Of a stretch of 64,000 nt of DNA, positions 16,626-60,110 are shown piece after piece. Both the position numbers and the translations under genes were made by a program. How positions within the stretch are numbered: position 1 is the first letter of the stretch; each line of letters opens with the position of its first letter. Below the pieces are notes generated by a model. That model was given only the letters and a program-made list of their open reading frames with translations, searched no databases and was not told the origin of the DNA. This DNA is from an uncultured delta proteobacterium (GTDB taxonomy: Bacteria; Desulfobacterota; Binatia; UBA9968). Where the stretch lies: assembly GCA_963745035.1 (NCBI GenBank), contig CAVUVW010000014.1, forward strand, positions 1 to 64,000, given 5' to 3'.

Positions 16626-16745
16626 AGCGGAACGGAGCGGACCGATGGATCCGCTGGAGCGTACGCTAGTTAATTTTTTTGGTAGGAGGAATTCCGATGA
16701 GCAGCGTCCATTTTTTCCTCTTGTCCACGAATCATGGACATTGCA

Positions 16746-16994: not shown

Positions 16995-17160
16995 CCGCGG
17001 TCGTGTTTTGGTAACGGTCAACGAGAAATCCGCGTCCCCTTAGAGCTGAATATCTAGTAGACTACAGAATTGTGAAGAATCTCGAAAAAAGACGGCCGAT
17101 TCCAGTGCTCTTCCAGAAGAGAATCCAATAATCCTAAGATGGAGAACGCCGCAGGAGGCA

Positions 17161-20128
<2,968 letters not shown>

Positions 20129-35862: not shown

Positions 35863-35952
35863 GTGAAAATCCTTTCTTGCTTGATTGTTGAAAACTGAGA
35901 TATTCGGTAATACCCCAATGATTATTTCAGGTTCAGTTGCTCTCAGACTCAT

Positions 35953-36495: not shown

Positions 36496-36511
36496 AGCAA
36501 CGCATGTGCCA
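36496..36511 (-). promoter_or_regulatory. sigma54 -24/-12 promoter for the DUF302-nitrilase operon
   Basis: minus strand TGGCACATGCGTTGCT matches TGGCAC-N5-TTGC[AT]; divergent sigma54 activator adjacent. Confidence 0.8.
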
Positions 36512-36784: not shown

Positions 36785-38388
36785 ATGATCGCTGAGCCCA
36801 TACTTTCCCTAGCTGCTTCCGTCGCTGCCGAGCACAGCGTTCAAGGCGTCCTTGACTCGATAGTACGCGGCCTTGCCGCACAGCCTCATGTCGCCTTGGC
36901 GCGAATATGGCTTCTATCTCCTGGGGATATTTGTGATTCGTGCTTCATGCGCGCCGAGTGCGCTGATCAGACCCAGTGCCTTCAACTAATGGCGAGTGCT
37001 GGAAATCCCGCCAATTCACCCGGGGAGGATTGGACTTTTCTGCAGGGTCACTTTCGCCGCATGCCTCTCAACGCGACGAAGGTCGGAGAAGTCGGGACCA
37101 CCGAAAATCCCATTTTGATCAAAGACTTCGCTCCCGAGAACCATTGGATCAGTCGAACTGATTGGGCGAGACGCGAAGGTATCCGCAGCTTCGTCGGACA
37201 TCCGTTAGTGTTCCAGGGGAAAATCCTCGGCGTTCTTGCGCTATTCAGCCGTGAACCTCTCGTTGAACAAGAATCGACTTGGATCGGTGTCTTCGCCAAA
37301 CAAGCAGCCGTTGCTATCGCCAATGCCCGTGCTTTTGAAGAAATTGCCCAGCTCCGAAAGCAGTTGGAGATCGAGAATGACTATCTGCACGAGCAGGTCA
37401 AGGAAACTTTCGCATTTGGTGAAATCGTCGGTAAAGAGGCCGCGCTTCAAAAAGTGCTTCAACAAGTTCGGATGGTGGCGCGCACTAGTGCCACTGTAAT
37501 GATCGGGGGTGAATCGGGCACGGGTAAGGAACTCATTGCCCGCGCGATCCATGACGGAAGTCCGAGGCGCGATCGTCCTATGGTTACCGTTAACTGCGCC
37601 TCTGTGCCGAGGGAGCTGTTCGAAAGCGAATTCTTCGGTCACGTGAAGGGCGCCTTCACAGGCGCCTTACGCGATCGCACCGGCCGATTTCAGCTGGCCG
37701 ATAAGGGAACCATTTTTCTCGACGAGGTGGGGAAATCCCAATCGAGCTGCAGAGCAAGCTGCTCCGCGTATTGCAAGAAGGACAGTTCGAGCGTGTGGGT
37801 GATGATCAGACGCGCCATATAGACGTGCGCATCATCTCGGCGACAAATCGGGACCTCAGTCACGAAGTAGAAGCTGGCCACTTTCGCCGGGATATTTACT
37901 ACCGGCTCTGCATGTTCCCTATCCATATGCCTCCCTTGCGCGACCGGCGTCAGGACATCGGACCGTTGGCCGTTCATTTTCTCAAACTCAGCTGCCGCCG
38001 ATTGAATTGTCCCGACGTGCGGCTCACCGAACACGCCATTGAGCTTCTTTTCCGCCTACGATTGGCCTGGCAACGTGCGTGAATTGCAGAATGTGATCGA
38101 GCGCGCCGTGATTCTTTCGCAGTCCGGCCCCTTACGGATCGACCTAGTGCTGGGTGATACGGCATCGACGCCGGGCATTGCGCCTTCGCATTTCCAGACT
38201 AACACGTCAGCGCGGATAGTAGTGTCGAAGCAGGAAATAGATCGCCGGGAGCACGAGAACATAATCGCTGCTTCGAAAAAACTGGGGGAAGGGTTTATGG
38301 ATCTGGTGGCGCCGCTGAAATTTTAGGAATGAAGCCGACTACGCTCGCTTACCGGCTCAAGAAGATGGGCATCAAAAGACCGCTGTAA
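36785..38388 (+). CDS. sigma54-dependent activator (GAF + AAA+ + Fis HTH, FhlA-like), frameshifts near 37730, 38048 and 38270-38290
   Basis: [38 protein letters not shown], terminal HTH '[17 protein letters not shown]' spread over different frames. Confidence 0.85.
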
Positions 38389-38527: not shown

Positions 38528-38827
38528 CAGCTCTAGTTCGGGTCGGACCGCTGAGAGGCGATGGGCGATCGGTTACGTGATTCAACCTGCCGGTTCCAAT
38601 CGGACGAGTTGTCTCCGCGCTAGGTGCGCCTCAAGCTGGGCTTTTTCGCGGAGGCGCGATGTACTTGACGGTGATCGGCGAGAGGTCTCTCGGACGATCA
38701 TGACCTCGATGATTGTGCACGGCCGCCCACAGACGCGCCAGCGGGACAGAGTAAAGAACTCTCGTCCGATCACGGAACCAGGCATCTTCTGCCTGAGATG
38801 CGGCTGCATAACAGAAGGGATGCGAAC

Positions 38828-40234
38828 ATGGGACACGCGCACATCGGGGTATGCTTGGGATTGGTTATCGCCGTCGTGGCGGCGGGCTATGGTCGAGTTC
38901 TCGTCGCGGGCGAGGCGGTCGCGACCGTCGGCGGACGCGGCTATCTGATTCAGAACGCCTCGCTCGTGCTCACGATGGATCCGAACCTCGGAGACAGGAG
39001 CATCCTCGGACAGCTCGAGAATGGCGACGTCCTCATCGTCGGCGACCAGATTGCCGCTGTGGGGGTTAAGCTCTCGGCACCATCTGGGGTGAAGGTGATC
39101 GACGGCCGTGGGATGGTCGTCATGCCCGGCTTCGTCGATACCCATGACCACCTCTGGCAGTCGCTCATCCGCGGATGCGCTGCCGATGACGATCTCAATG
39201 GCTGGCTCAACCGCTGCGTGTTCCCGTTCAACACCAGCCCGTTCAGCGAGACCGATGCCTATGCCGGTGTGCGTCTCAGCGCCACAGGCCTGATCGATAC
39301 GGGCGTGACCACCGCGGTTGACTGGTCGCACGCGTTCAATCCCGGCTTCGTGCGCGGCAACCTGCGCGCTCTCACCGACTCGAAGATGCGGTTCGTGTTT
39401 GCGATGTTCGGCGCCCAGAGCGACGGCTCGGACATCATCGCGGCCAAGAAGGAGTTCATCGATGACAACCCGCTTGCTACGCTCCAGGTCGCCACTCACC
39501 CCGCTCCCTTCCTCGCGACCCACGTCGAAGACATGACGGCGGTCGCTCAGTTGCTCGGGGTCAAGCTCCACGTCCACCTGCTCGAGGACATCAGCCAGGT
39601 GGGCGAAGATCCGCTGGGAGTGTTGCAGGCTGCCGGCGCGTTGGCCCTCGGCCGTGACCTGTACACCGCCCACAGCATCCACCTGGGCGACGGCAACATC
39701 GAGACCCTCAAGACCCTCAACGCTGCGGTGTCCCACCAGCCGCTCAGCAACATGCGGCTCGCCTCGGGCATCATGCGCTATCCGGACATTCAGGAGGCTG
39801 GGCTCCGCATCGGCCTCGGGCTCGATGGCGGCACCAACGACACTACCGACGCGTTCAACAACATGCGCGCCGCGGTCGGCCTCCAGCGCGCCACGTCGCG
39901 CGACGCCGACCAGTCGCCCACCGTGGCCGAGGTGCTTCGCGCGGCCACCCTGGGCGGCGCCGAAGCGCTGGACATGCAGCACAAGATCGGCTCGCTGACC
40001 CGGGGCAAGCAGGCCGACCTTATCGTGATCGAACAACGCGCGCTCAACTTCGCTCCGCTGCTCCACCCCGTCAACCAGATCGTCTTCAACGGCCAGCCGC
40101 AGAACGTCAAGTGGGTGTTCGTGGCCGGCCGCGCACTCAAGGAGAAAGGCAGGGTAATGGGCGTGAACCACGGCGCGTTGCTCAAGGCTGCCCAGGCCGC
40201 GAGCAGCCACATCAAGCCGTTCATCCAGCCGTGA
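38828..40234 (+). CDS. metal-dependent amidohydrolase (Atz/Trz/SAH-deaminase-like) with N-terminal hydrophobic segment
   Basis: PGFVDTHDH, HVHLLE, AHSIH, GLDG, ATLGGAEAL, GSL..GKQAD. Confidence 0.9.
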   Translation: MGHAHIGVCLGLVIAVVAAGYGRVLVAGEAVATVGGRGYLIQNASLVLTMDPNLGDRSILGQLENGDVLIVGDQIAAVGVKLSAPSGVKVIDGRGMVVMPGFVDTHDHLWQSLIRGCAADDDLNGWLNRCVFPFNTSPFSETDAYAGVRLSATGLIDTGVTTAVDWSHAFNPGFVRGNLRALTDSKMRFVFAMFGAQSDGSDIIAAKKEFIDDNPLATLQVATHPAPFLATHVEDMTAVAQLLGVKLHVHLLEDISQVGEDPLGVLQAAGALALGRDLYTAHSIHLGDGNIETLKTLNAAVSHQPLSNMRLASGIMRYPDIQEAGLRIGLGLDGGTNDTTDAFNNMRAAVGLQRATSRDADQSPTVAEVLRAATLGGAEALDMQHKIGSLTRGKQADLIVIEQRALNFAPLLHPVNQIVFNGQPQNVKWVFVAGRALKEKGRVMGVNHGALLKAAQAASSHIKPFIQP

Positions 40235-40528
40235 CCACTTCTAAAATTCCCTTGATATTACTCTTTAGCGGACTTAGGAATACAACGCGTGATTGACCGC
40301 CGAGCGAGAAGCATTTTGTTCGATACGTATTGGTCAGCGTCTGGATGGAAGGGCTCCTCTGAAGGAACCGAGCCCAGACGATTTAGCGAAAATGGTAACG
40401 GAGTCTTTGCTAGCAGCGAGACCTTGAACGGCGGCTTTGGCGAGAGTGAAATTGGTCTCGGGTTGCATGGCCAATCGCATCAAATCTTGCGTCCGGAGAA
40501 TGAGATCCCTCTAGAGGATGATGCAACA

Positions 40529-41452
40529 ATGCCAAACAAGAACTTTAGTAGAATTCTATTAGCATTCAGTATGGTTTTATTCCTTTGCCTCGCGTGTTCT
40601 CGTGCTTTCGCTGTATTCAGAGGTGAACCTGACGCGGGAGAACATCCTTTCGCAGGACTCGCTTATATATTTATTCCCGCCAGTAACAACTATACCACTT
40701 GTAGTGGCTCGCTGGTGAATGCACCGAATCTCCCAGATCGCCAAGTCTTCTTGACGGCGGGGCATTGCATCTTTTTTGCAGAAGTATTGGGCGGTGGAAC
40801 TCGCTGGAATGTCACGTTTGATGAAACGCCAGAAATGGACTTTGCCGATCCGACCTCTCGGTTTCCAACATCACTCTCACCCGACCACACATACGCTGGT
40901 ACTGGTTATACGGATTTTTCTACGAAGAGCAGTGGTCTTGGGGTTGGGAGTGGAAAAGGGGATTACGGCATTATCCTCCTTGATCGCCCAGTCGATAAAA
41001 GCATTGTTCCACAACCTGCGGAACTTCCGGCAATTGGCCTGGTGGATGATTTATTCGGGCCACATGGTACGGCAGATACACGTGAAATTACTATGGTTGG
41101 ATATGGTATTGAAATGTGGAGTACAGGTGGTGGTGGTCCAGCAGTAGTCGTCAATGGGCCTCGTGAAAAATCTGTCATTACTTTGGATATTTTAAGCATT
41201 CAAAATTGGAACATACTGGAGCAAATGGGACTTCAACAGGGAGATATGACGGCTTGTAATGGAGATTCAGGTGCACCTGGTATTGTTACTCAAGAGGACA
41301 TTGACATAGTGGTCGCCATCACTGCCAATGGCGATTCGCACTGTCGTGCGACTAATACCATGACTCGCGTTGACACACAGGATTTTCGTAATTTCCTGAG
41401 CAAGTTAGGTACAACACGACGACATAAACCGGTAAAACAAACTCGGTGGTGA
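40529..41452 (+). CDS. secreted trypsin-like (S1) serine protease
   Basis: CSGSL, LTAGHC (His), DYGII (Asp), CNGDSGAP (Ser); signal peptide; visibly AT-richer than the flanks. Confidence 0.85.
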   Translation: MPNKNFSRILLAFSMVLFLCLACSRAFAVFRGEPDAGEHPFAGLAYIFIPASNNYTTCSGSLVNAPNLPDRQVFLTAGHCIFFAEVLGGGTRWNVTFDETPEMDFADPTSRFPTSLSPDHTYAGTGYTDFSTKSSGLGVGSGKGDYGIILLDRPVDKSIVPQPAELPAIGLVDDLFGPHGTADTREITMVGYGIEMWSTGGGGPAVVVNGPREKSVITLDILSIQNWNILEQMGLQQGDMTACNGDSGAPGIVTQEDIDIVVAITANGDSHCRATNTMTRVDTQDFRNFLSKLGTTRRHKPVKQTRW

Positions 41453-41641: not shown

Positions 41642-42523
41642 TTATCCTTCGACCTTTCTGATGCTCTTGTACCACTCCAGAATTTCTTCGCCTGTCCAAA
41701 AGAGAACGCCGCGCTGCTTTTTCAAATAAGCCAGGGTCTTGTCGAGGTACTTGATCCGGTGTGGCACGCCGCTGATATAGGGATGGACCACGATCGCCAT
41801 CACGCGGGCGCTCTTCGCGCCTTCGGCATAAAGCGTCTCGAACTGATCCTTGGCGCGGCGAAAAAACTCCTCAGGCTCATGGTGCTGCAGAATCATCATC
41901 GCGATATCATTCAGCTCCACGCTGTACGGCAGCGAGACGAGCGGTCCATGGGCGGTCTTGATCTCGTAAGGTTGCTCGTCGTTGACCCAGTCCGCGACAT
42001 ACTGAAATCCGGCCTCCGCCAGATAATCGAGGGTTTCCGGCGTCTCAACGAGGCCCGGGCCTTCCCATCCTGAGGGCGTTTTTCCGGTAAATTTGCGGAT
42101 CTCCTCAACGGATTTGCGAATGATCTCCCGTTGGTTCTCTGCCTGACTCAAAGATTGCTGGATGAATCCGTGACCCAGGAACTCCCAGCCGGCTTCTCGC
42201 GAAGCTTCAGCGATTCTAGGATAGGTGGAGCAAACGGCGCCATTGATTCCCATGGTGACTTTGATCTTGTGTTTGTCGAACACCGACTTCAGGCGCCAGA
42301 ATCCAACGCGCATGCCGTATTCGAACCAGCCAAAGTTAGCCACGTCAGGAATGGCCTGAGCCCCGCCTGGCGGCGGCAGGACCGTGCGCGGCATCGGTGC
42401 TTGGATATCCCACACCTCGACATTGACAATAGTCCACACCACCACTCGAGCAGATTTCGGGAGACGCAGTGGCGGCCGATCGATGATCGCCGAATAAGGA
42501 ATCTGGTCGCGCGGAAATGCCAT
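41642..42523 (-). CDS. polysaccharide-deacetylase family protein (PuuE / allantoinase-like)
   Basis: VNVEVW, EYGMRVGFWRL, EFLGHG, GWEGPG, DEQPY, HPYISGVPHR. Confidence 0.85.
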   Translation of the reverse strand: MAFPRDQIPYSAIIDRPPLRLPKSARVVVWTIVNVEVWDIQAPMPRTVLPPPGGAQAIPDVANFGWFEYGMRVGFWRLKSVFDKHKIKVTMGINGAVCSTYPRIAEASREAGWEFLGHGFIQQSLSQAENQREIIRKSVEEIRKFTGKTPSGWEGPGLVETPETLDYLAEAGFQYVADWVNDEQPYEIKTAHGPLVSLPYSVELNDIAMMILQHHEPEEFFRRAKDQFETLYAEGAKSARVMAIVVHPYISGVPHRIKYLDKTLAYLKKQRGVLFWTGEEILEWYKSIRKVEG

Positions 42524-42669
42524 GATAGCCCTCGTTGGTGACGCGATTACGTTGTCTTCAATGAACGCGGTTTGATTCGCCTAAAAGCTATTCCCACACT
42601 GCCTAGAGTCCGTGGTTCCCGAATGATTCTATCGCGAATCCGAGACCGGAGTCGGCGACTCTCGGCGTC

Positions 42670-44380
42670 TCAATGCTCGAGATGAAACTGAACACGAGAG
42701 CGACCATCGATTCGGTCGGACTTGATCCGGTCAACGTAGTTCCTTATCAGAAAACCCGCCAGCTTCACGACCGCTCGCTCATCCCCCAACAGGTCCGTTT
42801 CCGTAGGCCGCGCGCTCGGAAATTCCATCGGCTCCCCCTCGTAGCGCATGTCGATATCGAGACTGAACTCATCAAAACTCACGTCAGCGTCGATCCTGCC
42901 GATGTTCGGCTCGAGCAGGCTTACGGCTTCGATGAATTCGTTCATCGCAGACTTGGCGCGGTCGATCACTTCCCTGCGCGCACCCCACCCTCCGCCCTGC
43001 TTTTCCATAAACACGAATATCTGATCTGAAGAATCCGCGCGCGGGTCGATTTGCAGCTTCGCATGTTGCGCGATGCCGATGCGAAACAAGAGGTTCAAGA
43101 ACATTGCCGACAACGTGGCCACCGAAAGCGAGGAAGTAAAGGCGGGCAGAAAAATGGCTAGGGACACTTTGGTAGGCGCCGGGCATCAGGTCCACGCTTA
43201 ACCCCAAGGCGACTGACGCGCCGACCACGAGTGTCTTGCGGGCATCCATCATGCGCGAGCTAAGAATCTGAACTCCGGCAACGATCATGAAGCTAGCCGC
43301 GAAAAACAGAAGAGCTCCGATCACCGGACTCGGCATGATGGCAAACAATACCGTCAGCTTAGGCACAAAGGCCAAAACTATCAGAATTGCGCCGCAAGCA
43401 AACCCAATCCGGCGGCTTGTCGCACCGGTCGCAATGGAGAGACCGACGTTGGCGCTGGAGGTCGACTGTCCCATGGTTCCTACTCCTCCGGACAACATCA
43501 CACCGCAAGCATCCGCAAGGATGCCGCCACTGATAGACTTCATATCCGGCCTCTTCCACTCAGCATCGTTTACTTTTTGACATGTCGTCAAGTCACCCAC
43601 GGCCTTAAGCGATGAGGCCAACGCCGTCACCATAAAGGGGACCAGCAATGCGCCGCTAAAGGACCAGCCTTCTCCTGGAAAAGACGGCAGAGCGAGAAGA
43701 GAGGCCTGCTCTAAACGCCGTAAGTGTTCATCGGTCACTAGACCACTGGCATAAGCGCAGAGCGAGCCAGCACCGATTCCGATCAAAACGCCATACAACC
43801 GCAGCCTCGATGAGCCCCACACGGTCACGCCAACCATGACGAAGAAAGTGATGGAAGCTATACTCACCGAGAGCGGATCAATAACCATGCGCGACTTTTC
43901 GATTCCTAAAAACCTCGAGACCGCTACAGGAATGAGCGCGAGACCGACCATCATCACGATCGTGCCGGTAACCTCGGCAGGAAAAAAGGGCCGGAGACGG
44001 CCCATGAGACGAGAGAGCACCACGCCGAAGAGACCGCTCACCAGAGTCATTCCCGCCAACAGCGGAAGGCCGCCAGTCTTGACCGCCAGAATAGAGACCG
44101 GGATATATGCGGGGCCCACCTGCTCGGGACAGAGATAACCGGATCCTATACGTTCATACCGGAGCGTTTGCAGAATCGTCGCAATCCCCATGACGATCAT
44201 CGATGCGTGGATCATCCGTTCCGCCTGCGCGGCAAGCATTCCGGTCTCCTGCAGAAGGATCACAGGATAAACGAAGGCACTGGACAGGGCGAGAATATGC
44301 TGTAGACCGAGCAAAACTGTGGTTGCTAGTGACGGACTTTCATCGACGCCATAAATCAAATTGGCCGGCTTCTTGGCCAT
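42670..44380 (-). CDS. NCS2 (xanthine/uracil-type) permease with C-terminal HATPase-like domain, copy 2; frameshift near 43155
   Basis: LIYGVDE.P, LQH, ANVG...TG NAT motif, MPSPVIG; colinear with copy 1 once the frame is restored. Confidence 0.85.
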
Positions 44381-44501
44381 GGCAGATTGTTAGTTTATGG
44401 AGCGAGCACTCCATACTGGCTGGCAGTTTTCTCCTAAACGACTTCGAATCGCCGCTGAGATTTTGGTCGCAAGTCGGTTGGAGTCAGCAGACCTCGGCGT
44501 C

Positions 44502-46211
44502 TCAATGCTCGAGATGAAACTGAACACGAGAGCGACCGTTGATTCGGTCGGACTTGACCCGGTCAACGTAATTCCTTATCAGAAAACCCGCCAGCTTCGC
44601 GACCGCCCGCTCATCCCCCAACAGGTCCGTTTCCGTAGGCCGCGCGCTCGGAAATTCCATCGGCTCCCCCTCGTAGCGCATGTCGATATCGAGACTGAAC
44701 TCATCAAAACTCACGTCAGCGTCGATCCTGCCGATGTTCGGCTCTAGCAAGCTTACGGCTTCGATGAATTCGTTCATCGCAGACTTGGCGCGGTCGATCA
44801 CTTCCCTGCGCGCACCCCACCCTCCGCCCTGTTTTTCCATAAACACGAATATCTGATCTGAAGAATCCGCGCGCGGGTCGATTTGCAGCTTCGCATGCTG
44901 CGCGATGCCGATGCGAAACAAGAGGTTCAAGAGCAGCGCAGACAACGTCGCCACCGAAAGCGAGGAGGTAAAGGCAGGCAGAAGCACGGCGGGAACGCTC
45001 CGGTAGGCGCCGGGCATCAGGTCCACGCTTAACCCCAAAGCGACTGACGCGCCGACCACGAAGGTCTTGCGCGCATCCATCATGCGCGAGGCAAGAATCT
45101 GAACTCCGGCAACGATGATGAAGCACACCGTGAAAAACACCAGGGCTCCGATCACCGGGCCCGGCATGATCGCAAACAACACCGCCAGCTTGGGTACGAA
45201 AGCCAAAGCAATGAGCATTCCCCCGCATGCGAGGCCGATCCGGCGGCTGGTCGCACCGGTCGCAATGCACAGACCGACATTGGCGCTGGAGATCGTCAGT
45301 CCCATAGTTCCTGCTCCGCCGGACAACATCACACCGCACGATTCGGCAAGGATGCCGCCGCGAATAGACTGCATGTCCGGGCGTTTCCACTCGGTATCGT
45401 TGATCTTCTGGCAGGTGGTCAGGTCGCCCACTGCCTTGAGCACCGAGGCCAACACCGTCACCAGGAAGGGGAAGATCAGCGCGCTGCTAAAGGACCATCC
45501 CTCATGGAAGAAAGACGGCAGAGAGATGAGCGGGGCCTGCTCCAAACGGCGGAGGTGTTCATGAGTCAGCATGCCGCTGCCGTAAGCGCAGAGATAACCG
45601 GTTACTACACCGATCAAAACGCCGTGCAGCCGCCACTTCGACGAGCCCCACACGGTCACGCCCGCCATGACGAAGAAAGTGATGGAAGCGATGCTCACCG
45701 AGAGCGGATCGATGACCGCGCGTGGCTCTTCGATTCCTAAAAATCTCGAGACCGCCACGGGAATAAGGGCGAGACCGACCATCATCACGATCGTGCCCGT
45801 GACCTCGGCGGGAAAAAAGGGACGGAGACGATTCATGAAGCGAGAGAGCACTACCCCGAGGAGACCGCTCGCCAGAGTCATTCCCGCCAGCAGCGGCAGG
45901 CCGCCCGTCTTGACCGCCAGAATCGACGCCGGGATATAGGCAGGGCTCAGGCGCTCCGGACAGAGATAGCCGGATCCTATACCGCCATACCGCAGCGTCT
46001 GCAGAATCGTCGCGATCCCCATGACGATCATCGACGTATAGATCATCCGCTCCGCCTGCTCGGGGAGTATGCCGGTCTCCTGCAGAAGGATCACCGGAAA
46101 AACGAAGGCACTGGACAAGGCGAGAATATGCTGCAGGCCGAGCAGAAGCGTGGTTCCTAGTGCCGGACTTTCATCCAGGCCGTAAATCAAATCGGCCGGC
46201 TTTTTGGCCAC
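44502..46211 (-). CDS. NCS2 permease with C-terminal HATPase-like domain, copy 1
   Basis: same motifs as copy 2; probable GTG start at 46211 by alignment to copy 2. Confidence 0.9.
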   Translation of the reverse strand: MAKKPADLIYGLDESPALGTTLLLGLQHILALSSAFVFPVILLQETGILPEQAERMIYTSMIVMGIATILQTLRYGGIGSGYLCPERLSPAYIPASILAVKTGGLPLLAGMTLASGLLGVVLSRFMNRLRPFFPAEVTGTIVMMVGLALIPVAVSRFLGIEEPRAVIDPLSVSIASITFFVMAGVTVWGSSKWRLHGVLIGVVTGYLCAYGSGMLTHEHLRRLEQAPLISLPSFFHEGWSFSSALIFPFLVTVLASVLKAVGDLTTCQKINDTEWKRPDMQSIRGGILAESCGVMLSGGAGTMGLTISSANVGLCIATGATSRRIGLACGGMLIALAFVPKLAVLFAIMPGPVIGALVFFTVCFIIVAGVQILASRMMDARKTFVVGASVALGLSVDLMPGAYRSVPAVLLPAFTSSLSVATLSALLLNLLFRIGIAQHAKLQIDPRADSSDQIFVFMEKQGGGWGARREVIDRAKSAMNEFIEAVSLLEPNIGRIDADVSFDEFSLDIDMRYEGEPMEFPSARPTETDLLGDERAVAKLAGFLIRNYVDRVKSDRINGRSRVQFHLEH

Positions 46212-46651
46212 GATTCGAAGCTCTTGGTTGCGCAGAAGTTGTTGTGTCACCCGATAAGATACTAACTGGTAAGGAAATTCAACTCATTTTCTCGTAGGCG
46301 TACGGCGTGATCAGATGAAATGCATTCTTGGCGCGCCGATGCCCTATTGTCCGCAACCGACTATGCGTGAGCCAGCGTAGAGGATCGGTGGGCACATGGA
46401 ACTTTTGAAGACCGCGCAGCGGCGGCTTGAACGCAGCCTCAACGGTTGAACGGCTGGAACTGTTGGAAATCTTTTAGCGATCAAAAACGACCGTGCACAA
46501 GCAAACCGAATGGCGAATGTGACACAATCGTGCCAGACGACGGCTAATGTAAATAAACGCAGACTGACCAAGCAGAACAGCGGTCAAATCTGGAGTCATG
46601 CACCATGGCCTGGTAACCGTTGAAACGCCTTTCGCCTGATTGTTGTTATGC

Positions 46652-48346
46652 CTAAAGTTTTTTTTTCATGATCAGCAGATTTCCATCTTCCAGCCTTTGA
46701 TACTCGATCCCGTCCATCAACTTTCGCATGAGATGGATTCCCAATCCGCCTGCCGTCTTTTCATCGAGGGGCGTGGTGACGTCCGCTTCGGGCGCCGTGA
46801 GCGGGTTGAAAGCCCGTGCGTCATCTTTCAATTCCGCGATAACTTCTCCCGATTCAACCCTAATACGGACTAGGATCTCGTGCTCGCGATGATCGGAATA
46901 ACCATGAGAGATAATGTTGTTGACCGCTTCTTCCAAGGCGAGGTTAAGATCGTATAGGACACTCGGCGTAAGCTGGTGGCCCGCGGCAAATTCGCCTAGC
47001 CGCTCGCCTAATCTCGTGATTTCCGCGACTCTGTTTTTAAGAGTGAACTGCAGCTCTCCGTTGTTGCTTCCGGCTGGCCCCAAGTAGCGTATTGCCAGAG
47101 CCGTGATGTCGTCTGATTGCTCTGCGCCCGCGGCGAAAAGTGTTACCTGGCTGGTCAGGTGGTCAATCTGTTCCCGGGCGGAGGCGAACTTGGTTTGAGT
47201 CAAAATCGATTCCAGCCGCCGCTCCGAGAAGAACTGCCCCGCCGGATCCAAGGCCTCCGTGACTCCATCCGTGTAAAGGAAAATCGTTTCGCCGGAACCA
47301 AGTACCAAACGACCCCAACCGTAGCTACTGTCCTCGACCAGGCCGAGCACTCTTCCGCCCGTTTGCGGCACCTGTTGAACACCACCGCGAGAGATATGGT
47401 AAGGAGGATTGTGTCCACCGCTGCTATACTTGATCTCGCCGGTACGAGTATTGAGAATGCCGCAAAACAGGGTGGTAAACATTTGCGAGTCGTTATCGCG
47501 GCAGATCTGCCGGTTTACAGTCGACAGAATGTCGGACGGATTCTGAACTCGGGCAGCGATAGCTTTGAAAAGCGTCTTGATCACGGCCATAAATAGCGCC
47601 GCGGCCACCCCTTTGCCCGAGACATCGCCGATTGCAAAGCACAGGCGATCTTCGTCCAGAAAGAAAAAATCATAGAAGTCTCCGCCAACTTTTTTTGCCG
47701 GCGCAATGGCGGCGAAAATGTCCAACTCGCGGCGCTCCGGGAATGGCGGAAAGGTCTTAGGCAACATGCTCATCTGTATGTCGTGCGCGAGCTTTAGCCC
47801 CTCCTCCAGACGCTCCTTCTCGATATAGGCTTCGATCAGACGCCCGCGCTCCAGCGCCACGGTGATGTGATCGCTCAGCCCGGCCAACAGGGATTCGTCG
47901 ATTTCGTCAAACGTTTGGCGGTTTTTTTTATTCAGTACCTGAATCACGCCGACCAGGCTGTCGCCGTTGCCGATCAACGGCAAGCAGAGAATGGAGCGGG
48001 TGCGGTAACCGGTCTGTTTGTCGAAGGTCGGATCAAACCGCGGGTCCGCATGGGCGTCGGAAATGTTGATCAGCGCGCGTGTTTTGGCGACGGTTCCGGC
48101 GATGCCAACCCCAACCGGAATGCGAATTTCATTGATCTCGAGCTTCTGCGTGGTTTTGCTCCATAGCTCGTTGCGGGGTTGGTCGTAGAGAAAGAGCGTG
48201 GCGCGCTCCGCGTCCATGACCTCCGCGGCCTTGGCCACGATGACTTGTAAGAGGTTGTCGAGCTTAATTTCGCTGGCGAGGGCTTTGGCCACCCCCAATA
48301 ACGCTTTCAGGTTTCGCGCTTGGCGTTCGCTATCGACGGCCGTCAT
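46652..48346 (-). CDS. GAF + SpoIIE/PP2C phosphatase + RsbW-type kinase (HATPase_c_2) multidomain protein
   Basis: GAF (GIAG.VA..DPRFD..TGYRTRSILC.P..NK); GGDFYD, GDVSGKG, YTDGVTE, DDIT; EEAVNNIISHG, GGLGIHLM. Confidence 0.92.
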   Translation of the reverse strand: MTAVDSERQARNLKALLGVAKALASEIKLDNLLQVIVAKAAEVMDAERATLFLYDQPRNELWSKTTQKLEINEIRIPVGVGIAGTVAKTRALINISDAHADPRFDPTFDKQTGYRTRSILCLPLIGNGDSLVGVIQVLNKKNRQTFDEIDESLLAGLSDHITVALERGRLIEAYIEKERLEEGLKLAHDIQMSMLPKTFPPFPERRELDIFAAIAPAKKVGGDFYDFFFLDEDRLCFAIGDVSGKGVAAALFMAVIKTLFKAIAARVQNPSDILSTVNRQICRDNDSQMFTTLFCGILNTRTGEIKYSSGGHNPPYHISRGGVQQVPQTGGRVLGLVEDSSYGWGRLVLGSGETIFLYTDGVTEALDPAGQFFSERRLESILTQTKFASAREQIDHLTSQVTLFAAGAEQSDDITALAIRYLGPAGSNNGELQFTLKNRVAEITRLGERLGEFAAGHQLTPSVLYDLNLALEEAVNNIISHGYSDHREHEILVRIRVESGEVIAELKDDARAFNPLTAPEADVTTPLDEKTAGGLGIHLMRKLMDGIEYQRLEDGNLLIMKKKL

Positions 48347-48468
48347 TGAACTTGGAAAAAATACCGTAGATCAGTTTGCAGGTTTTTTCGATGGCGTTGC
48401 AACAAGGGGCCTTTGAACACAGCGCGGAAGGACAAGTATGTTCCTCTTGAAAACCGCGCCGGCCGATT

Positions 48469-49281
48469 TCAGATGTAAGCGTGCCTCAGCATCTCCGCCG
48501 CGGTTTCATCCAGTTGATCGGCACGCCGGACTTCTTCAAAACGCGCCAGCAAATCATTCACTCGCAGCCGGCGCTTATCCGCACCGCGAAAATCATGAAT
48601 GATCCGTCCCCGGTGCATCATGATCAGCCGATCGCCGAGATTAGCTCCCTGATGCATGGAATGCGTGACCATCAGCGTGGTTAGCTTTTCCCGGCAGACG
48701 ATTTCGTCGGTCATTTGAATGACTTGATCAGCGCTCTTAGGATCCAATGCGGCCGTGTGTTCGTCGAGAAGAAGCAATTTCGGCTTCAGCCAAGTGGCCA
48801 TGAGCAGCGTAAGCGCCTGCCGTTGCCCGCCCGAGAGGCTGCCTATAATGTTCCCGACTCTGTCTTCAAGGCCGAGATTCAACTGCTTCACGCGCTCGCG
48901 CAAGTCTTTCTTCAGCTCTGCCGATAGCGCCCATCCGAGCCCCCGGGAAAGGCCCCGGCGCGTCGCCATCGCAAAGTTCTCGGCGATGGACATGGAGGCG
49001 GCGGTGCCGCTGAAAGGGTTTTGGAAAACACGACCGATCATTTTTGCCCTGCGGTGCTCGGCCCATTGCGTCACGTCGTGATCAGCCAAGCGGATGGCGC
49101 CGCCATCCACCGGGAAACTGCCCGCAACTGCGTTGAGCAAGGTCGATTTGCCGGATCCGTTTGTGCCGATCACGATCACCCAGGAACCTTCATCGATGTT
49201 GAGATCGACACCGCAAAGCGCTGTCACTTCATTCGACGTTCCGGGATTGAACGTCTTGCAAACATTTTTGAGCTCAAGCAT
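48469..49281 (-). CDS. ABC transporter ATP-binding protein (putative Trp/Tyr-type family)
   Basis: GTNGSGKS, LSGGQRQ, LLLDEHTAALDP, VTH. Confidence 0.92.
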   Translation of the reverse strand: MLELKNVCKTFNPGTSNEVTALCGVDLNIDEGSWVIVIGTNGSGKSTLLNAVAGSFPVDGGAIRLADHDVTQWAEHRRAKMIGRVFQNPFSGTAASMSIAENFAMATRRGLSRGLGWALSAELKKDLRERVKQLNLGLEDRVGNIIGSLSGGQRQALTLLMATWLKPKLLLLDEHTAALDPKSADQVIQMTDEIVCREKLTTLMVTHSMHQGANLGDRLIMMHRGRIIHDFRGADKRRLRVNDLLARFEEVRRADQLDETAAEMLRHAYI

Positions 49282-50245
49282 TGAGCACCGATTCCGGCTG
49301 CGCTCCGGCTACCGGCTTGAGGGCGCCCGGCCTTTTTTCGAACTTGCTCAAAATCCGCGGCAGGATCAGCGCCACGAAAACAAATGCGGCGGTAATCAGT
49401 TTGAGATCGTTGGGATCGAGCCCCCAACGCAACGCGATGGCGACCAGCAGGCGGAAGAGAACCGATCCCATGACAGCGCCCGTGAAGGCCAGTCCCAAAC
49501 TTCCCGGGCCAACCAACGCTTCGCCTATGATGACGCTTGCGAGTCCCCAGACCACCATGCCGATACCCATCTGGACATCGGCAAATCCCTGGTATTGCGC
49601 CAGCATCGCCCCCGACAGCGCGATCAATCCGTTGGAGATCGCCAGGCCAAGCACGGTCATGCTTTCGACGTTCGCTCCGAGCGCGCGGATCATCTGAGCA
49701 TTGTCGCCGGTCGCTCTCATGGCGGTGCCAAGATTGGTCCGAAAAAAAAGATAGAGCGCCAGCCCGATGAGCGCGACAATGGCAAAGGCCATTAACAACA
49801 TCGAAATGTCGCGCATGCTGACCGGCCATCCGCCGAGGTTGATATCGCCGGTGGAGCCTGACAACAGGACTCCCGCCCGTTCGGCGTAAGTCCCCACGGT
49901 ACTTTCGGAAAGCAAGGGCACGTTGCTCTTGCCCATGACATGAAGATTGACGGAATAAAGCGCCGTCATCACGAGAATGCCGGCAAGCAGCGCCTGGATT
50001 TTGAAGTAAGTATTAAGGATGCCGGTGATCGTACCCGCAAGCACCCCTCCGGCAAAGGCGGCCGCAGTTGCCCAAAACGGATCGACGCCCTGCACCAACA
50101 AAACGGCGCAAAGCGCCGCGCCAAAAGTAATCGATCCGTCGGCCGTAATATCCGGGAAGTGAAAGATGCGAAAGGTAATAAAAACACCGAGCGCCAGCAG
50201 CGATAAAATCAAGCCGATCGTCAAGGCGCCGATCAGTAATGCCAT
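49274..50245 (-). CDS. ABC transporter permease (putative Trp/Tyr-type family)
   Basis: FPDITADGS, LLAGIL, GTAMRATGDN, QYQGFAD..MGIG. Confidence 0.9.
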   Translation of the reverse strand: MALLIGALTIGLILSLLALGVFITFRIFHFPDITADGSITFGAALCAVLLVQGVDPFWATAAAFAGGVLAGTITGILNTYFKIQALLAGILVMTALYSVNLHVMGKSNVPLLSESTVGTYAERAGVLLSGSTGDINLGGWPVSMRDISMLLMAFAIVALIGLALYLFFRTNLGTAMRATGDNAQMIRALGANVESMTVLGLAISNGLIALSGAMLAQYQGFADVQMGIGMVVWGLASVIIGEALVGPGSLGLAFTGAVMGSVLFRLLVAIALRWGLDPNDLKLITAAFVFVALILPRILSKFEKRPGALKPVAGAQPESVLNA

Positions 50246-50248
50246 GGG

Positions 50249-51487
50249 TCACTTCTCCGCGGAAATTTCTGCAATCGAGCCGATCCAGCAGGCGCCGCGA
50301 AAGAATTCACTCTGGCCGGCGCCCGATTCACGTTCGTCGTTGAGCAAGTGCAAGACTCCCTCCAGGTTCTCGACTTCGAACAACCCTCTGGCGGCCTCCT
50401 TGAGATTCGTTTCGCCTTTTTTGAGCGGATGGTATGAAAACGAGGCGGCGTGAAAGTGACCGGCGAGGTCGCAGTCTTTCGCCAACGGTCGGACGATGGG
50501 ATTAAGGCGCGAGCTTTGCTTCGATGTCGCGACGCCGACCACGAGCGCCACGGATCTCGCGTAGGCGCGCTCGGCGGTGAATGAAAGCCATTGGCGAATC
50601 TGCGGGTGCTCGAAAGCGGGCTGCGGCGCGGCTTCGAGCGCGGGCGAACGGCGCAGGGCGGCGCCCATGAGACCCGCCGATTCGGCGATCATGGCGACGG
50701 CAATGGCATCGCTCCCGGCCATTTCCCGGCACGCTTCGACGATCTCGCGCAAGGTCAATTGCAAGGAATTGTCCCTGCTTTCAAAGTAAACGATTTTTGA
50801 AAAATCGCCGTCGCAAGTGAGGCCGTAAAGAACTTGCAACCGGGGCACGAAATCACCGGTGGACAGAACATAATCGGGGACGTTGCTGCCATCGGTCGGC
50901 AGATATGCCGCAACGCCGGCTGCTGCCAAGAACTCGCCAAAACGCGACTGGCAGTCCTCGAAATTTTTGCCGAATGCGCCCAAGCCGATTCCCAGTGCTT
51001 CCTGACCAAACGGCAACTCCTGACAATGCTCCTTGTGGAATTGACATCCCACCAGCAGCTCGGGAGAGCCAATGACGCGCGCGGTCATTTTACTGGGGCG
51101 GCTTTCGAGAATCTCAAAGCGCGCGTTGCCGCGCACAAAAGTCTCCGCTTGCGTAGGCGTGGCGACCTGAACGTCGCCGCTTGGCGCTTTCTCAAACAGC
51201 AGCTCGGCCACGCCGGCCAATTCCAACACGGACTGCACTGCTTCGGAGGGTTCCGATACGACAAATGTCCCGTGGATCTCTTTGAGTTGTTTATAGGTCT
51301 GGAACAATACCCGGATGCCTGCGGAGCTAACGTACTCCACCTCTTTCATATTGAGCCGGATAGAGCGAGCTCCCCCGCGCAACACGTCGGCCACTTCATC
51401 GCCCAAATGCCCGGCCCAATAAGCATCGAGCCTACCTTTCGCTCTTAACTCGAAAGTGTCGTCCAACCGCTGTCGGGTAATTTCCAT
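50249..51487 (-). CDS. STAS (anti-anti-sigma-like) domain fused to a ~300 aa domain resembling alpha-acetolactate decarboxylase
   Basis: GRLDA, YVSSAGIRVL phospho-Ser loop, VLELAG; C-terminal GIGLGAF..GE..G.A...DGS, GHFH, VLHLL. Confidence 0.8.
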   Translation of the reverse strand: MEITRQRLDDTFELRAKGRLDAYWAGHLGDEVADVLRGGARSIRLNMKEVEYVSSAGIRVLFQTYKQLKEIHGTFVVSEPSEAVQSVLELAGVAELLFEKAPSGDVQVATPTQAETFVRGNARFEILESRPSKMTARVIGSPELLVGCQFHKEHCQELPFGQEALGIGLGAFGKNFEDCQSRFGEFLAAAGVAAYLPTDGSNVPDYVLSTGDFVPRLQVLYGLTCDGDFSKIVYFESRDNSLQLTLREIVEACREMAGSDAIAVAMIAESAGLMGAALRRSPALEAAPQPAFEHPQIRQWLSFTAERAYARSVALVVGVATSKQSSRLNPIVRPLAKDCDLAGHFHAASFSYHPLKKGETNLKEAARGLFEVENLEGVLHLLNDERESGAGQSEFFRGACWIGSIAEISAEK

Positions 51488-51489
51488 CG

Positions 51490-53475
51490 CTATTGACCGA
51501 TGACCTCTTCGGCTTTTTTTATGAGGGCGGGTGGAAGCGTCAAGCCGTTGTGCCGCGCCGCTTTGGTATTCAGAACTAATTTCGTTTTGCCGTAGGGAAT
51601 GAACGGAATTTTGGCAGGGTTCTCGCCGCGCATGACGCGAGCGGCCAACAAACCGGCTTCTCTTCCCGCGTCACCGTAGTCGCGTGCCAAGACGACCGCT
51701 GCGCCATAGCGCGCCTGAGAGGATTGAAAAGCAAAGATCGGCAATTTCGCTTTGTTGGCGGCTGCGGCGATACTCGGAAAAGCCGCGGCGGTGAGGTTTC
51801 CCGGAATCTGGCAAATCACATCGATGCGCTGACTCGTCAAAGCCAGCGCAGCGTCTGCCACGTCGGCACTGGTATTGGCTGCCACGGCGACGACCTTGAA
51901 GTCAAGTTTTCGCGCCGCCTCATTCAACTGCTCTCGGTGGTAAACCATGTTGACTTCCGCCGGCACAAATAAAGTTCCGAGCACCCGCACGTCGGGCCGT
52001 ATCTGGCGAATCAGTTCGAGCATCTCGGCATAAGCGGCGGTGTTGTAGACCCCGGTCACGTTGGGCAAATGATCCTCGTCGCTCCGGCCCGCTCCCGCCG
52101 CCACCGCGTTGGCCAGATAGGTAAAGACGATGGGTTTTCCCGCCGCGCGTTTGAGCGCGGCCTGCAGTGTCGGCGTCGACAGCGTGATCAACAAGTCCGC
52201 TCCCTCGGTGATCGCGGCATCCACCAAGCTGTTCACCGTCGCCATGTCGCCTTGCGCATTGCGAACGTCGACGACGTAATCCCGCCCCTCCTTCAAGCCG
52301 GATTCACGTAAGCCCGCGCGCACGCCGGCTTCGGATTCTTCGACATCTTGAACGTTGTTGTATTCGATGATTCGCACTTTCCACTTTTTTGCCAGCGGGC
52401 CTTGACTGTTATCGGCCGCCTGGCGCGGCGCCGCCTTGGTGCGCACTCCGGTTTCATTCACGAGAATATCCGCGCTGGCAGCGATGTCGTCTGGAATACG
52501 CCACGGATCCTTCAAGCCTCTCACGGCGAGTTGGTTGACCACCAATCGCCGCGGCGAGAAATCACGCACGGGTATCTGAGCCGGATCGGCGCCGCGAATG
52601 ATGTCCACCGCCAATTTTCCCGTGAGTTTACCGATTTCGTGAAAATTGGCGCCGAGATCGAGGATCGTACCGCGCTCGGGATCGCCGGGAGAAATACCGA
52701 AAGCCGGAATGCGCGCTTTTTTCGCGGCGCTCAGGACCGAGTTCAAGGCAGAAAGTATCGTATTGTCTCCAGGCACCCACAACGCCTCGGCCCCTCGTGA
52801 AGCGAGCGAACTAGCGGCTTCAAGGACGCCCGATGAATTATCTACATGCGCTTCCAAAAGCTCGATTTGTAATTCCTGCGCAGCCTTGCGCGCCTGGCCG
52901 ACGAACCCTACGGAATTCGACTCTGCGGGATTCCAGGCCACGCCCACCGTTTTGAGGCGCGGAAACATTTTACGTGCGAGCTGAAAAGATTGGTCCACAG
53001 GAAGAGGAATGCCGGTTCCTACGAGATGACGCGGGTGGTCCAACGGAGCATCGCGTCTAAGCCCAACGCCTGCCGCGAAAGGATCGGCCACCAAACCAAA
53101 GACGTGAATGGCCTTGCCCTTCGTGTTCGCCTTGGCCACCGCCTGCATGGCCGGAGTGCTGAAGGTCATGACCATATCGAACTGGCCGTCGGTGACTTGC
53201 CGCGCGATGGCGTTGAGCGTCGCCATGTCGCCTTCGGCGTTGTACTGGCGAAGCGCTATATTTTGCCCGTCGATAAACCCGTTCTCGCGCAACGTCTCGA
53301 GGGCTCCCTCGAGACCTTCGACGAGCACGGGTTGAGAGGACAAGAGGACAATCGCGACCTGGGGAACTCGCTGTGCCGCGGGTCGCCGCTGATGCCAGTC
53401 CGAAGCAAGCAGGAGCACCGCCGTCAGAGCAATGAGAGAGAAACCCAAAGATAATCGCGCAATCACCGAACGCAT
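51490..53475 (-). CDS. ABC substrate-binding protein with two tandem ABC_sub_bind domains
   Basis: NAEGDMATLN/NAQGDMATVN, STPAMQA/STPTLQA, NPAESNS/VPAEVN internal duplication; N-terminal TM. Confidence 0.9.
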   Translation of the reverse strand: MRSVIARLSLGFSLIALTAVLLLASDWHQRRPAAQRVPQVAIVLLSSQPVLVEGLEGALETLRENGFIDGQNIALRQYNAEGDMATLNAIARQVTDGQFDMVMTFSTPAMQAVAKANTKGKAIHVFGLVADPFAAGVGLRRDAPLDHPRHLVGTGIPLPVDQSFQLARKMFPRLKTVGVAWNPAESNSVGFVGQARKAAQELQIELLEAHVDNSSGVLEAASSLASRGAEALWVPGDNTILSALNSVLSAAKKARIPAFGISPGDPERGTILDLGANFHEIGKLTGKLAVDIIRGADPAQIPVRDFSPRRLVVNQLAVRGLKDPWRIPDDIAASADILVNETGVRTKAAPRQAADNSQGPLAKKWKVRIIEYNNVQDVEESEAGVRAGLRESGLKEGRDYVVDVRNAQGDMATVNSLVDAAITEGADLLITLSTPTLQAALKRAAGKPIVFTYLANAVAAGAGRSDEDHLPNVTGVYNTAAYAEMLELIRQIRPDVRVLGTLFVPAEVNMVYHREQLNEAARKLDFKVVAVAANTSADVADAALALTSQRIDVICQIPGNLTAAAFPSIAAAANKAKLPIFAFQSSQARYGAAVVLARDYGDAGREAGLLAARVMRGENPAKIPFIPYGKTKLVLNTKAARHNGLTLPPALIKKAEEVIGQ

Positions 53476-57418: not shown

Positions 57419-58402
57419 TCAGCGTCTTTGCCCGGACGCTGGATCTTCGCCGCTTTCGGCGATGGAATCGCGCATCGAAGTATCGGCCTGTACATTCTTC
57501 ATACGATAATAATCCATGATGCCAAGATTACCTTGCCGAAACGCTTCCGACATCGCTCGCGGCACCTCGGCCTCGGCTTCAACGACGCGAGCCCGCATCT
57601 CCTGTTCCAACGCCACCGCCATCGCGCGGCGTTCCTCCGCCTTGGCTTGGGCAATCTGCTTATCGGCGTTGGCCTGATCGATTTGCAGCTTGGCGCCGAT
57701 GTTCTCGCCCACATCCACATCGGCGATATCGATGGAAAGAATCTCGTAAGCGGTGCCAGCGTCCAACCCTTTGGTCAAAACGTGCTTGGAAATATGGTCG
57801 GGATTCTCGAGCACGTCCTTGTGCGACGCCGAGGAACCGATCGTGCTTACCATGCCTTCGCCGACACGCGCGATGATCGTCTCCTCACCAGCGCCCCCGA
57901 CCAGCCGGTCAATATTGGTGCGCACGGTGACCCGGGAAACTGCGATGAGCTGAATGCCGTCTTTCGCCACAGCGGCGATCTTCGGCGTTTCAATCACCTT
58001 CGGAATAACCGACATTTTAACCGCCTCCAAAACATCGCGACCGGCTAGATCGATGGCAGCGGCGCGCTTGAACGGCAACGGAATGTTCGCTTTATCCGCT
58101 GAGATCATGGCATGGACGAGCCGCACGACGTTGCCGCCCGCCAGGTAATGCGCTTCGAGATCATTGAGCGAAATATCCAAACCCGCCTTGACCGCGCTAA
58201 TGCGCGCGGTGATGACAGTGCCGGGAGGCACCCGTCTGAAGCGCATCCCGATAAGAGTCAACAGTCCGACATAGGCGCCGGATGCCCATGCCGCGATCCA
58301 CAACGGGAGCGGAACCAGGTACAGGACAAACACAAGGCCGACAACGAGCAGCAGCAAGATCGCAATGCCGCCGGCGAGACCGGTTTCAAATCCACCCATC
58401 AT
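57419..58402 (-). CDS. floA: flotillin-like protein FloA (YqfA)
   Basis: [54 protein letters not shown]. Confidence 0.95.
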
Positions 58403-58418
58403 TCAGCTCCTTTCCAGT

Positions 58419-59867: not shown

Positions 59868-60110
59868 GGACTCGCCACGAAGCCGCATCGCGATACTCGA
59901 CAACGTAAGCAGTTGCCTCCCGGCACGGGCTTGAATGCAGTCACATTTATGGCTGCGGCACAGCTAAGCCATTTTTTTTCCGGCGGCAATGGGGCCCGCT
60001 TTAGTGCCGAAAGTCATATAACATTTGGATGCCATGCGATAGAGAGGCAAGTTTTTCTCGACTGATCGGATAGCTGATGAAATTTTGTGAGGCTGTCGTT
60101 TAGCCAGAAA

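Follow-up and report, generated by a model that had tools for sequence, protein, structure and literature searches.

A candidate partner-switching circuit without a sigma factor among transporter genes of an uncultured Binatia bacterium

Organisation of the gene cluster

Partner switching is the textbook mode of sigma-factor control, and a few outputs other than sigma factors are known. Here we describe a cluster of eight genes from an uncultured delta proteobacterium of soil (Desulfobacterota; Binatia; UBA9968; assembly GCA_963745035.1), in which the parts of a partner switch lie among genes for transporters. The cluster runs from position 53475 to position 41642 of the first 64,000 nucleotides of contig CAVUVW010000014.1, and this whole stretch is hereafter called the window. 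We propose, with a probability of roughly 0.55, that the cluster encodes a partner-switching circuit that has no sigma factor and in which transporters are the receivers.

The eight genes are arranged head to tail on the minus strand. A preliminary description of this DNA had listed eight co-oriented genes together with their domains, and all of them were recovered at the same places by open reading frame calls and by searches of Pfam and NCBIfam. From head to tail, the features are as follows.

51490..53475, minus strand: binding protein of 661 amino acids with two ABC_sub_bind stretches, first gene of the ABC (ATP-binding cassette) operon (Pfam PF04392, E 1.9e-92)
50249..51487, minus strand: fusion protein of 412 amino acids, STAS (Pfam span residues 6-97, E 7.8e-14) followed by a C-terminal domain of about 310 amino acids
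49274..50245, minus strand: ABC permease, BPD_transp_2 (Pfam PF02653, E 2.5e-26)
48469..49281, minus strand: ABC ATPase (Pfam ABC_tran, E 1.7e-26), overlapping the permease gene by 8 nt
46652..48346, minus strand: protein of 564 amino acids with GAF (29-166), PP2C-SpoIIE (231-421) and RsbW-type serine kinase (438-562) domains (Pfam)
46212..46651, no strand: intergenic gap of 440 bp between the GAF-PP2C-kinase gene and NCS2 copy 1
44502..46211, minus strand: NCS2 permease copy 1, 569 amino acids (Pfam Xan_ur_permease, E 1.2e-56), tail encoded at 44505-44909
42670..44380, minus strand: NCS2 permease copy 2, its reading frame broken near 43159 by an insertion of 1 nt, with an intact tail frame at 42673-43077
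41642..42523, minus strand: PuuE-like hydrolase, Polysacc_deac_1, 293 amino acids (Pfam PF01522, E 5.4e-10)

Gaps of 2 nt and 3 nt separate the first three genes, the third and fourth overlap by 8 nt, and the gaps further downstream are 122, 440, 121 and 146 nt. Against the TrpX-type model for substrate-binding proteins of NCBIfam, the binding protein scored 312.8 bits, below the cut-off of 390. The assignment to NCS2 is based on scores of 192.6 bits with Xan_ur_permease (cut-off 27) and 57.5 with NF037981 (cut-off 40); the scores with the equivalog models for xanthine permease and uracil permease were both under the cut-offs, so no substrate is assigned.

The reading frame of NCS2 copy 1 reaches 46250, and the GTG at 46211 is the start used by its homologues, nearly all of which have 569 amino acids. 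If copy 1 starts at this GTG, the 440-bp gap is real, and the split between the NCS2 genes and the upstream part that had been remarked on earlier holds. An Rfam search of the gap gave no family, its promoter and terminator signals were not above those of shuffled controls, and a search for a degraded STAS gene in it found no remnant. In contigs from four sequencing runs, those of RNA libraries from near relatives lie on several genes, which is not proof of transcription, and no RNA-library contig bridges the gap.

Two NCS2 genes with RsbW-like tails had been reported for this locus. The tails stood up to comparison of both fold and profile, as described below, but copy 2 is frameshifted as assembled: near 43159 it has one nucleotide more than copy 1, its assembled reading frame of 498 amino acids (44380-42884) has an out-of-frame end, and its tail forms a separate reading frame (43167-42670). 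The two copies are 98% identical in the tail and 82% identical in the membrane part. Contigs of related strains have 73 letters across 43149-43224, where the window has 74, and other genes in the assembly are split, among them a sigma-54 activator (36785-38326) in three pieces; the break in copy 2 may therefore have arisen recently or result from faulty assembly. At the frameshift position, no cover came from the run in which most of the window is represented.

The kinase, phosphatase and STAS components

The kinase part of the fused enzyme (residues 438-562) matched Pfam HATPase_c_2 at E 6.9e-26 and aligned to RsbW and SpoIIAB chains. It keeps the Glu/Asn of the N-box and the GGLG box, which are invariant among 16 local kinases. 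The PP2C part matched Pfam SpoIIE at E 4.2e-50 over model positions 1-191 of 192. In the genome (7.43 Mb, 92.6% complete) there are three modules of PP2C joined to an RsbW kinase, that of the window and two paralogues; all three lie among genes for transport or binding proteins, and none adjoins a sigma gene.

The STAS domain of the fusion (residues 1-97) matched SpoIIAA and RsbV chains at E values from 3.6e-16 to 1.8e-10, and it is the sole STAS in the window. Its candidate phospho-serine is Ser54 (codon 51326-51328), which lies in a Ser-Ser-Ala-Gly loop that we take to be the loop bearing the phospho-serine in SpoIIAA. S54 and S55 were invariant in 20/20 sequences, and the SSxG motif was kept in 78 of the 79 aligned rows of the STAS fusion, for which at least 1175 homologues of about 415 amino acids were found. 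The locus thus holds a complete set of kinase, phosphatase and STAS among transporter genes, with GAF, PP2C and kinase in one protein and STAS in the ABC operon, as had been claimed. The accompanying claim of an enzyme domain fused to STAS found no support: the C-domain of about 310 amino acids had no Pfam match (E<=1) in the window protein or in 20 relatives, the profile of the fusion matched solved-structure sequences with its STAS part only, and two tries of an ESM Atlas search gave no cluster.

The permease tail has the fold of an anti-sigma kinase

The last ~135 residues of the window permease had no Pfam match even at E<=10. Among 43 relatives of this tail, eight matched HATPase_c_2 at E<=1 (best, 2.4e-4). 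When the tail profile was compared by hhalign with 16 RsbW-like kinases of local and related loci, the probability was 91% with E 1.1e-6 over 125 columns, and its comparison with solved-structure sequences gave only chance-level matches. The tail family is large: an exhaustive search gave 515 representative clusters at E<=1e-3, the stricter threshold of E<=1e-10 leaving 226, and its members mostly form the C-terminus of proteins of about 570 amino acids.

An AlphaFold model of the tail, built from the 43-sequence alignment, had a pLDDT (predicted local distance difference test) of 96.6 and a pTM (predicted template-modelling score) of 0.89. A full-length NCS2 model from 29 close homologues was poor (pLDDT 46). 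The top Foldseek matches of the tail model were all SpoIIAB, RsbW or UsfX (E 4e-6, TM about 0.7), and its comparison with 48,161 chains by VIA-align ranked the same families highest.

UsfX: Z 14.0, root-mean-square deviation 2.4 over 118 residues (Protein Data Bank, PDB, 8ih8 and 8jzt)
SpoIIAB: Z 13.5
RsbW domain of Rv1364c: Z 13.1
RsbW: Z 13.0
LvrC, a response regulator: Z 11.9
SiaB: Z 10.9 (PDB 6kko)
ATP domains of histidine kinases: Z <=8.5

The model, Foldseek and VIA-align agree on a Bergerat (GHKL) fold of the anti-sigma-kinase type. The RsbW-like tails reported earlier were therefore borne out by fold and by profile comparison with the local kinases; the Pfam family model gave no match for the window tail itself and matched 8 of the 43 relatives at E<=1.

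At the kinase motifs, the window tail has Ala for the Mg-binding Asn, Tyr for the Asp of G1 and Ala-Lys-Leu-Ala for GGLG. In metagenome tails, the position of the Mg-binding Asn is A, S, T, G or C in 74/74, that of the G1 Asp is Tyr in 73/74, and A or S stands in place of the final Gly of GGLG (n=74, with 5 gaps). Judged from these residues, the permease tails are kinase-dead RsbW-like domains that have lost all three ATP-binding motifs, as would be expected of a site used for docking alone.

Residues of the tail's own are also conserved: W31, G32, E47, D69, E70, Y79 and G81 are invariant in 73-74 of the 74 relatives, and D116 and H132 nearly so. This pattern suggests a function under strong selection. 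Except for Glu47, these residues sit outside the STAS interface predicted below, and they may mark a second interface, with the membrane domain or in a dimer, or else a pocket for a ligand in place of the ATP site.

Live RsbW-like kinases adjoin tailed permeases at five loci (L147:9441-9899, L166:955-1437, L168:5037-5450, L198:9483-9902 and L162:3607-5934); those of L147, L166, L168 and L198 stand alone, and that of L162 is a PP2C-kinase fusion. All five keep N, D and GGLG and match both the kinase and the tail profiles. Of live kinases, these may be the nearest to the tail, a hint that a neighbouring kinase was duplicated and fused to give the tail.

A model of STAS docked on the tail

A complex of the tail with STAS residues 1-105 was predicted with an ipSAE interface score of 0.85, a mark that 116/157 solved complexes and 2/215 mismatched pairs attained, and the best of three controls scored 0.00. 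Between runs, at least 98% of the contacts agreed, and the pLDDT of the partners was at least 84. In the model, STAS residues 52-59, including Ser54 and Ser55, face the degenerate N-box and G2 box of the tail (residues 46-54 and 102-110). A model of the complex anticipated in the preliminary description was thus obtained, with the serine loop placed on the dead active site. The modelled geometry is that of the solved SpoIIAA-SpoIIAB and RsbV-RsbW complexes. Because the acidic Glu47 and Glu50 of the tail face the STAS serine in the model, a phosphate on this serine should repel the tail. The model speaks for compatibility of the two surfaces, not for binding.

Linkage of transporters and switch genes in other genomes

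In contigs representing one genome per species, a relative of the STAS fusion was encoded at 355 or more of 597 pattern-matched stretches; the relatives among the matches listed came mostly from Acidobacteriota, Binatia and Acidimicrobiia. We fetched 79 of these loci and counted gene order wherever the contig allowed it. A binding-protein gene precedes the STAS fusion in 69/73 testable loci of other species, the permease gene lies downstream in 76/77, and the ATPase gene is present in 72/75; the exceptions are mostly split or merged reading frames. The STAS fusion is thus a fixed member of a widespread ABC operon. Directly beside this operon, an RsbW-like kinase is encoded in 17/79 loci.

Tailed NCS2 permeases were searched for in metagenomes with the full-length NCS2 alignment, which gave 76 loci. 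A gene for STAS, PP2C or an RsbW-like kinase lies within 5 kb of the tailed NCS2 gene in 43 of these loci, and the share is 16/22 where both flanks extend for at least 3 kb and 12/18 where both extend for at least 5 kb. As a baseline, the 14 STAS matches in the 7.43 Mb of this genome mean that about 2% of random 12-kb stretches hold one, by our own arithmetic; the co-occurrence of tailed NCS2 with STAS and PP2C that had been predicted is thus far above chance. The linkage takes at least five different gene orders, as follows.

Order 1: PP2C, STAS, permease
Order 2: STAS, PP2C, permease
Order 3: PP2C, kinase, permease
Order 4: permease, then PP2C/kinase and STAS
Order 5: ABC operon, then permease

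Since the gene orders differ among loci, they argue for selection on the link itself and not for inherited synteny alone. The commonest minimal unit, seen at no fewer than 16 loci, consists of PP2C, STAS and the tailed permease without a further output gene. The sensor domains on the PP2C proteins vary (GAF, 5TMR-LYT, HAMP and sCache).

The ABC operon with the STAS fusion lies directly beside a tailed permease in 13/76 metagenome loci, in relatives with 94% to about 49% identity. One of these contigs (L132) carries the orthologous cluster in full, with just one permease gene, which is intact, and the hydrolase follows the tailed permease in both L132 and the likewise orthologous contig L133. 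The layout is therefore not unique to this genome.

The same genome holds the system once more, in rearranged form (L005; contig 14, 798000-817900; positions 8193-17695 of that piece, or about 806-816 kb of the contig). It begins with a small STAS and a tandem binding protein, after which comes a scar of the ABC operon composed of the last 148 amino acids of the ABC ATPase (78% identical) and a 26-amino-acid remnant of a tail. The scar is followed by an intact tailed NCS2, a gene of 151 amino acids, STAS, a HAMP-PP2C protein and a separate RsbW-like kinase. The scar looks like a deletion that removed the STAS fusion and the permease gene. The arrangement in the window is not due to chance, as its links recur in this second locus, in other genomes and in metagenome contigs.

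Two further loci were encountered. One, in the same genome, is a third partner-switch locus without a sigma factor (L051; contig 17, 108000-126000; positions 5792-14240). It encodes STAS, a protein of the metallo-beta-lactamase fold, Peripla_BP_6, a sCache-HAMP-PP2C-kinase of 651 amino acids, two STAS and a ferric-reductase-like membrane protein. The other is a contig of Vicinamibacteria (L097) on which a whole unit of binding protein, STAS fusion, permease, ATPase and RsbW-like kinase occurs twice in tandem, at 546-6034 and 7984-13472, with the same gene lengths.

No sigma factor at the locus

The genome has 17 Sigma70_r2 matches. None of them is in the window, in agreement with the earlier statement that the cluster lacks a sigma gene, and the nearest on the contig is at about 683 kb. 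A genome search for sigma factors of the SigB/F/G class found none over the cut-off, the best score in this 92.6%-complete genome being 113.6 bits vs 234.35. A Pfam scan of the flanks of tailed-NCS2 loci of the same phylum brought up no sigma gene; for the metagenome loci, the screen of the flanks covered solely the cluster's own components.

These results bear on a conventional switch, in which the fused kinase or the tails would sequester a sigma factor encoded elsewhere. The fold is of the anti-sigma-factor type, and the 17 Sigma70_r2 matches come from a genome that is not entirely complete, which leaves room for such a partner. The poor best score for the SigB/F/G class, the lack of a sigma gene beside any of the three PP2C-kinase modules and the Pfam-scanned flanks speak against it, and we regard it as very unlikely. 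The switch probably controls uptake directly, not a sigma factor.

Transporters as proposed receivers of the switch

In the circuit that we propose, the GAF domain would read a small molecule, for which the preliminary description had put forward an imported metabolite, and thereby set the balance of kinase and phosphatase, and this balance would set the phosphorylation of STAS Ser54. Unphosphorylated STAS would dock on the dead-kinase permease tails, using the surface by which a live kinase would grip it, and phosphorylated STAS would be released. By analogy with the cis STAS domain of SLC26/SulP carriers, docking would then alter the activity of the carrier.

Several observations weigh against this circuit. 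Two are local weaknesses, namely, the 440-bp gap between the permeases and the upstream genes, and copy 2, which is frameshifted as assembled. The passing ipSAE of the docking model may reflect the likeness of the pair to solved complexes. The others come from the neighbourhoods. Among the 79 species loci with the STAS-fusion ABC operon, none holds a tailed NCS2, and just 23 have a kinase, a phosphatase or an additional STAS within 6 kb; its own ABC transporter may therefore be the principal partner of the STAS fusion. A scan of genomes of the same phylum found the tail in 13/401, and at the 12 tailed-NCS2 loci of the other genomes, STAS and PP2C are adjacent in two, both of one genus, with no STAS or PP2C within 6.5 kb at the remaining 10. 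In the metagenomes, 33/76 tailed-NCS2 loci have no switch gene within 5 kb, many of their contigs being short, and 6/22 have none where both flanks reach at least 3 kb. A separate single-domain STAS is encoded in 5 of the 13 loci that join the ABC operon to a tailed permease, and the tails may favour such a small STAS. Finally, a kinase is missing from the surroundings of many PP2C-STAS-permease loci, whose circuits must therefore be completed by genes located elsewhere.

These counts raise the alternative that two systems lie side by side, the STAS fusion being just an accessory or regulatory subunit of its own ABC importer under the GAF-PP2C-kinase, in the manner of MlaB and MlaF, and the tails answering to another STAS, of a single domain and encoded outside the cluster. 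Binding of the STAS protein MlaB to the ATPase MlaF, described in PMC7367683, is a precedent for the first half. The strictly kept order of the ABC operon (69/73, 76/77 and 72/75 loci), the RsbW-like kinase beside it in 17/79 loci and the lack of tailed NCS2 genes in all 79 fit this alternative, as do the extra small STAS in 5/13 joint loci and the 14 STAS matches in the genome. The window, however, has no other STAS gene or remnant of one; moreover, a tailed permease directly adjoins the operon in 13/76 loci over a range of identity from 94% to about 49%, and the complex model accepts the fusion's STAS on the tail. We consider two separate systems possible, if somewhat unlikely.

The direction of the signal could also be reversed. 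If the permease were a sensor (transceptor), its transport state would set whether the tail holds or releases STAS, and the carrier would inform the switch. The strictly conserved tail residues outside the predicted interface (W31, G32, D69, E70, Y79, G81, D116 and H132) could couple the tail to the membrane domain or bind a ligand, and kinase-dead anti-sigma factors that merely sequester do exist, UsfX being the top structural match. Yet the commonest minimal unit, of PP2C, STAS and tailed permease, has no further output gene (at least 16 loci), and the PP2C proteins bear varied sensors of their own, which places the input upstream of STAS. This reading appears improbable to us.

Neighbouring genes and a candidate substrate

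The hydrolase at the end of the cluster (41642..42523) scored 129.7 bits with TIGR03212 (PuuE) vs a cut-off of 424.6, and assignment as the PuuE equivalog was rejected on this score; the genome has at least 14 paralogues of this deacetylase family. Beyond the cluster, an amidohydrolase of the group of guanine/8-oxoguanine deaminases and TRZ/ATZ hydrolases is encoded at 38798-40234 on the plus strand, facing the cluster, with a best score of 279 bits, below all cut-offs. Beside it, at 40289-41452 (plus strand), is the gene of a 387-amino-acid protein with just a weak trypsin-like match. A nitrilase of the Nit6803 family (35095-35952, minus strand) scored 417 bits vs a cut-off of 502.6. Since the neighbours include the PuuE-like hydrolase, the amidohydrolase and the nitrilase, the gene content suggests an N-heterocyclic nutrient as the substrate.

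Between the nitrilase gene and that of a GAF-type sigma-54 activator (36785-38326, plus strand; three reading frames with two frameshifts) lies a perfect sigma-54 consensus, TGGCAC-N5-TTGC, at 36497-36511 on the minus strand, and the two genes look like a divergent pair of regulator and target. A search of the whole window with the sigma-54 pattern gave 57 matches vs 67 expected. A helicase similar to Schlafen group 3 (30089-32110, minus strand, E 1.1e-82) and a pair of FloA flotillin and NfeD (57419-59903, minus strand) are unrelated to the cluster.

As STAS is also a fixed component of the ABC importer, the proposed switch could coordinate the ATP-driven and the secondary uptake of an N-heterocyclic nutrient. 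In its most far-reaching form, a single phosphorylatable STAS would shuttle among its own ABC importer, the GAF-controlled kinase/phosphatase and the dead-kinase tails of NCS2, and would switch within seconds and without transcription between ATP-driven and gradient-driven uptake of the same N-heterocyclic nutrient; the NCS2 tail would then be a trans mirror of the cis STAS of SLC26, reflecting an ancient and general gating of 7+7 elevator carriers. We hold this extended form to be rather doubtful.

If the proposed circuit is correct, NCS2 carriers of a large clade would be switched on and off post-translationally, the recurrence of STAS together with 7+7 carriers would have a functional explanation, and a widespread but unannotated STAS fusion in Acidobacteriota, Binatia and other soil lineages would gain a testable role. 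The locus is an unusually complete test bed, since a sensor, a kinase, a phosphatase and STAS occur there along with transporters of two kinds.

Comparison with known systems

Full-text searches of literature outside subscription journals gave no description of an NCS2 carrier with a domain resembling an anti-sigma kinase or of the present ABC operon with its STAS fusion. In a 2021 review on STAS-only proteins, 'transporter' occurred 11 times, each time for SLC26/SulP carriers or in the references, and 'permease', 'MlaB' and 'non-sigma' did not occur. Particular to this window are the STAS fusion as a fixed part of an ABC operon, the fused GAF-PP2C-kinase and the meeting of these two with tailed permeases.

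Among the closest models are the RsbU/RsbV/RsbW and SpoIIE/SpoIIAA/SpoIIAB switches of Bacillus, whose PP2C phosphatase, GHKL-type kinase and phosphorylatable STAS are all present in the cluster. Unlike in those switches, there is no sigma factor, a GAF domain precedes a kinase and phosphatase joined in one protein, STAS carries a further domain of 310 amino acids and is encoded in an ABC operon, and a second, dead kinase fold is carried by the carriers. Rv1364c of Mycobacterium tuberculosis (PDB 3ke6) also has phosphatase and RsbW kinase on one chain, and its RsbW domain is near the tail in fold (Z 13.1). It combines sensor, PP2C, RsbW and STAS in one protein, whereas the window enzyme has a GAF sensor, no fused STAS and, presumably, transporters as its targets.

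The best structural match of the tail, UsfX (Z 14.0), is the anti-sigma-F factor of M. tuberculosis, an anti-sigma factor of the RsbW fold that binds STAS antagonists and is not known to act as a kinase. UsfX is soluble and holds a sigma factor, whereas the window tail is the C-terminal domain of a 14-helix carrier with no evident sigma partner. Switches with an output other than a sigma factor are known from systems like SiaABCD, in which the output is a diguanylate cyclase; SiaB, solved with SiaC (PDB 6kko), matches the tail in fold (Z 10.9). In the window, by contrast, the switch would presumably act on a carrier that has a dead kinase built into it.

On the side of transporters, the STAS subunit MlaB is encoded in an ABC operon and binds MlaF, and post-translational control has been suggested, according to PMC7367683. 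The STAS gene of the window likewise lies inside an ABC operon at a position that is kept. In contrast to MlaFEDB, the ABC system is an importer of the ABC_sub_bind/BPD_transp_2 type and not of the Mla/MCE type, and its STAS carries the C-domain and the SSxG motif. PMC6497670 gives the 7+7 inverted repeat as common to SLC4, SLC23 (NCS2) and SLC26. Like the SLC26/SulP carriers, the tailed NCS2 permeases have a cytoplasmic C-terminal regulatory domain drawn from the partner-switching toolkit; unlike those carriers, which have STAS in cis, they bear the fold that binds STAS, and by this analogy STAS would act on them in trans and be switchable by phosphorylation.

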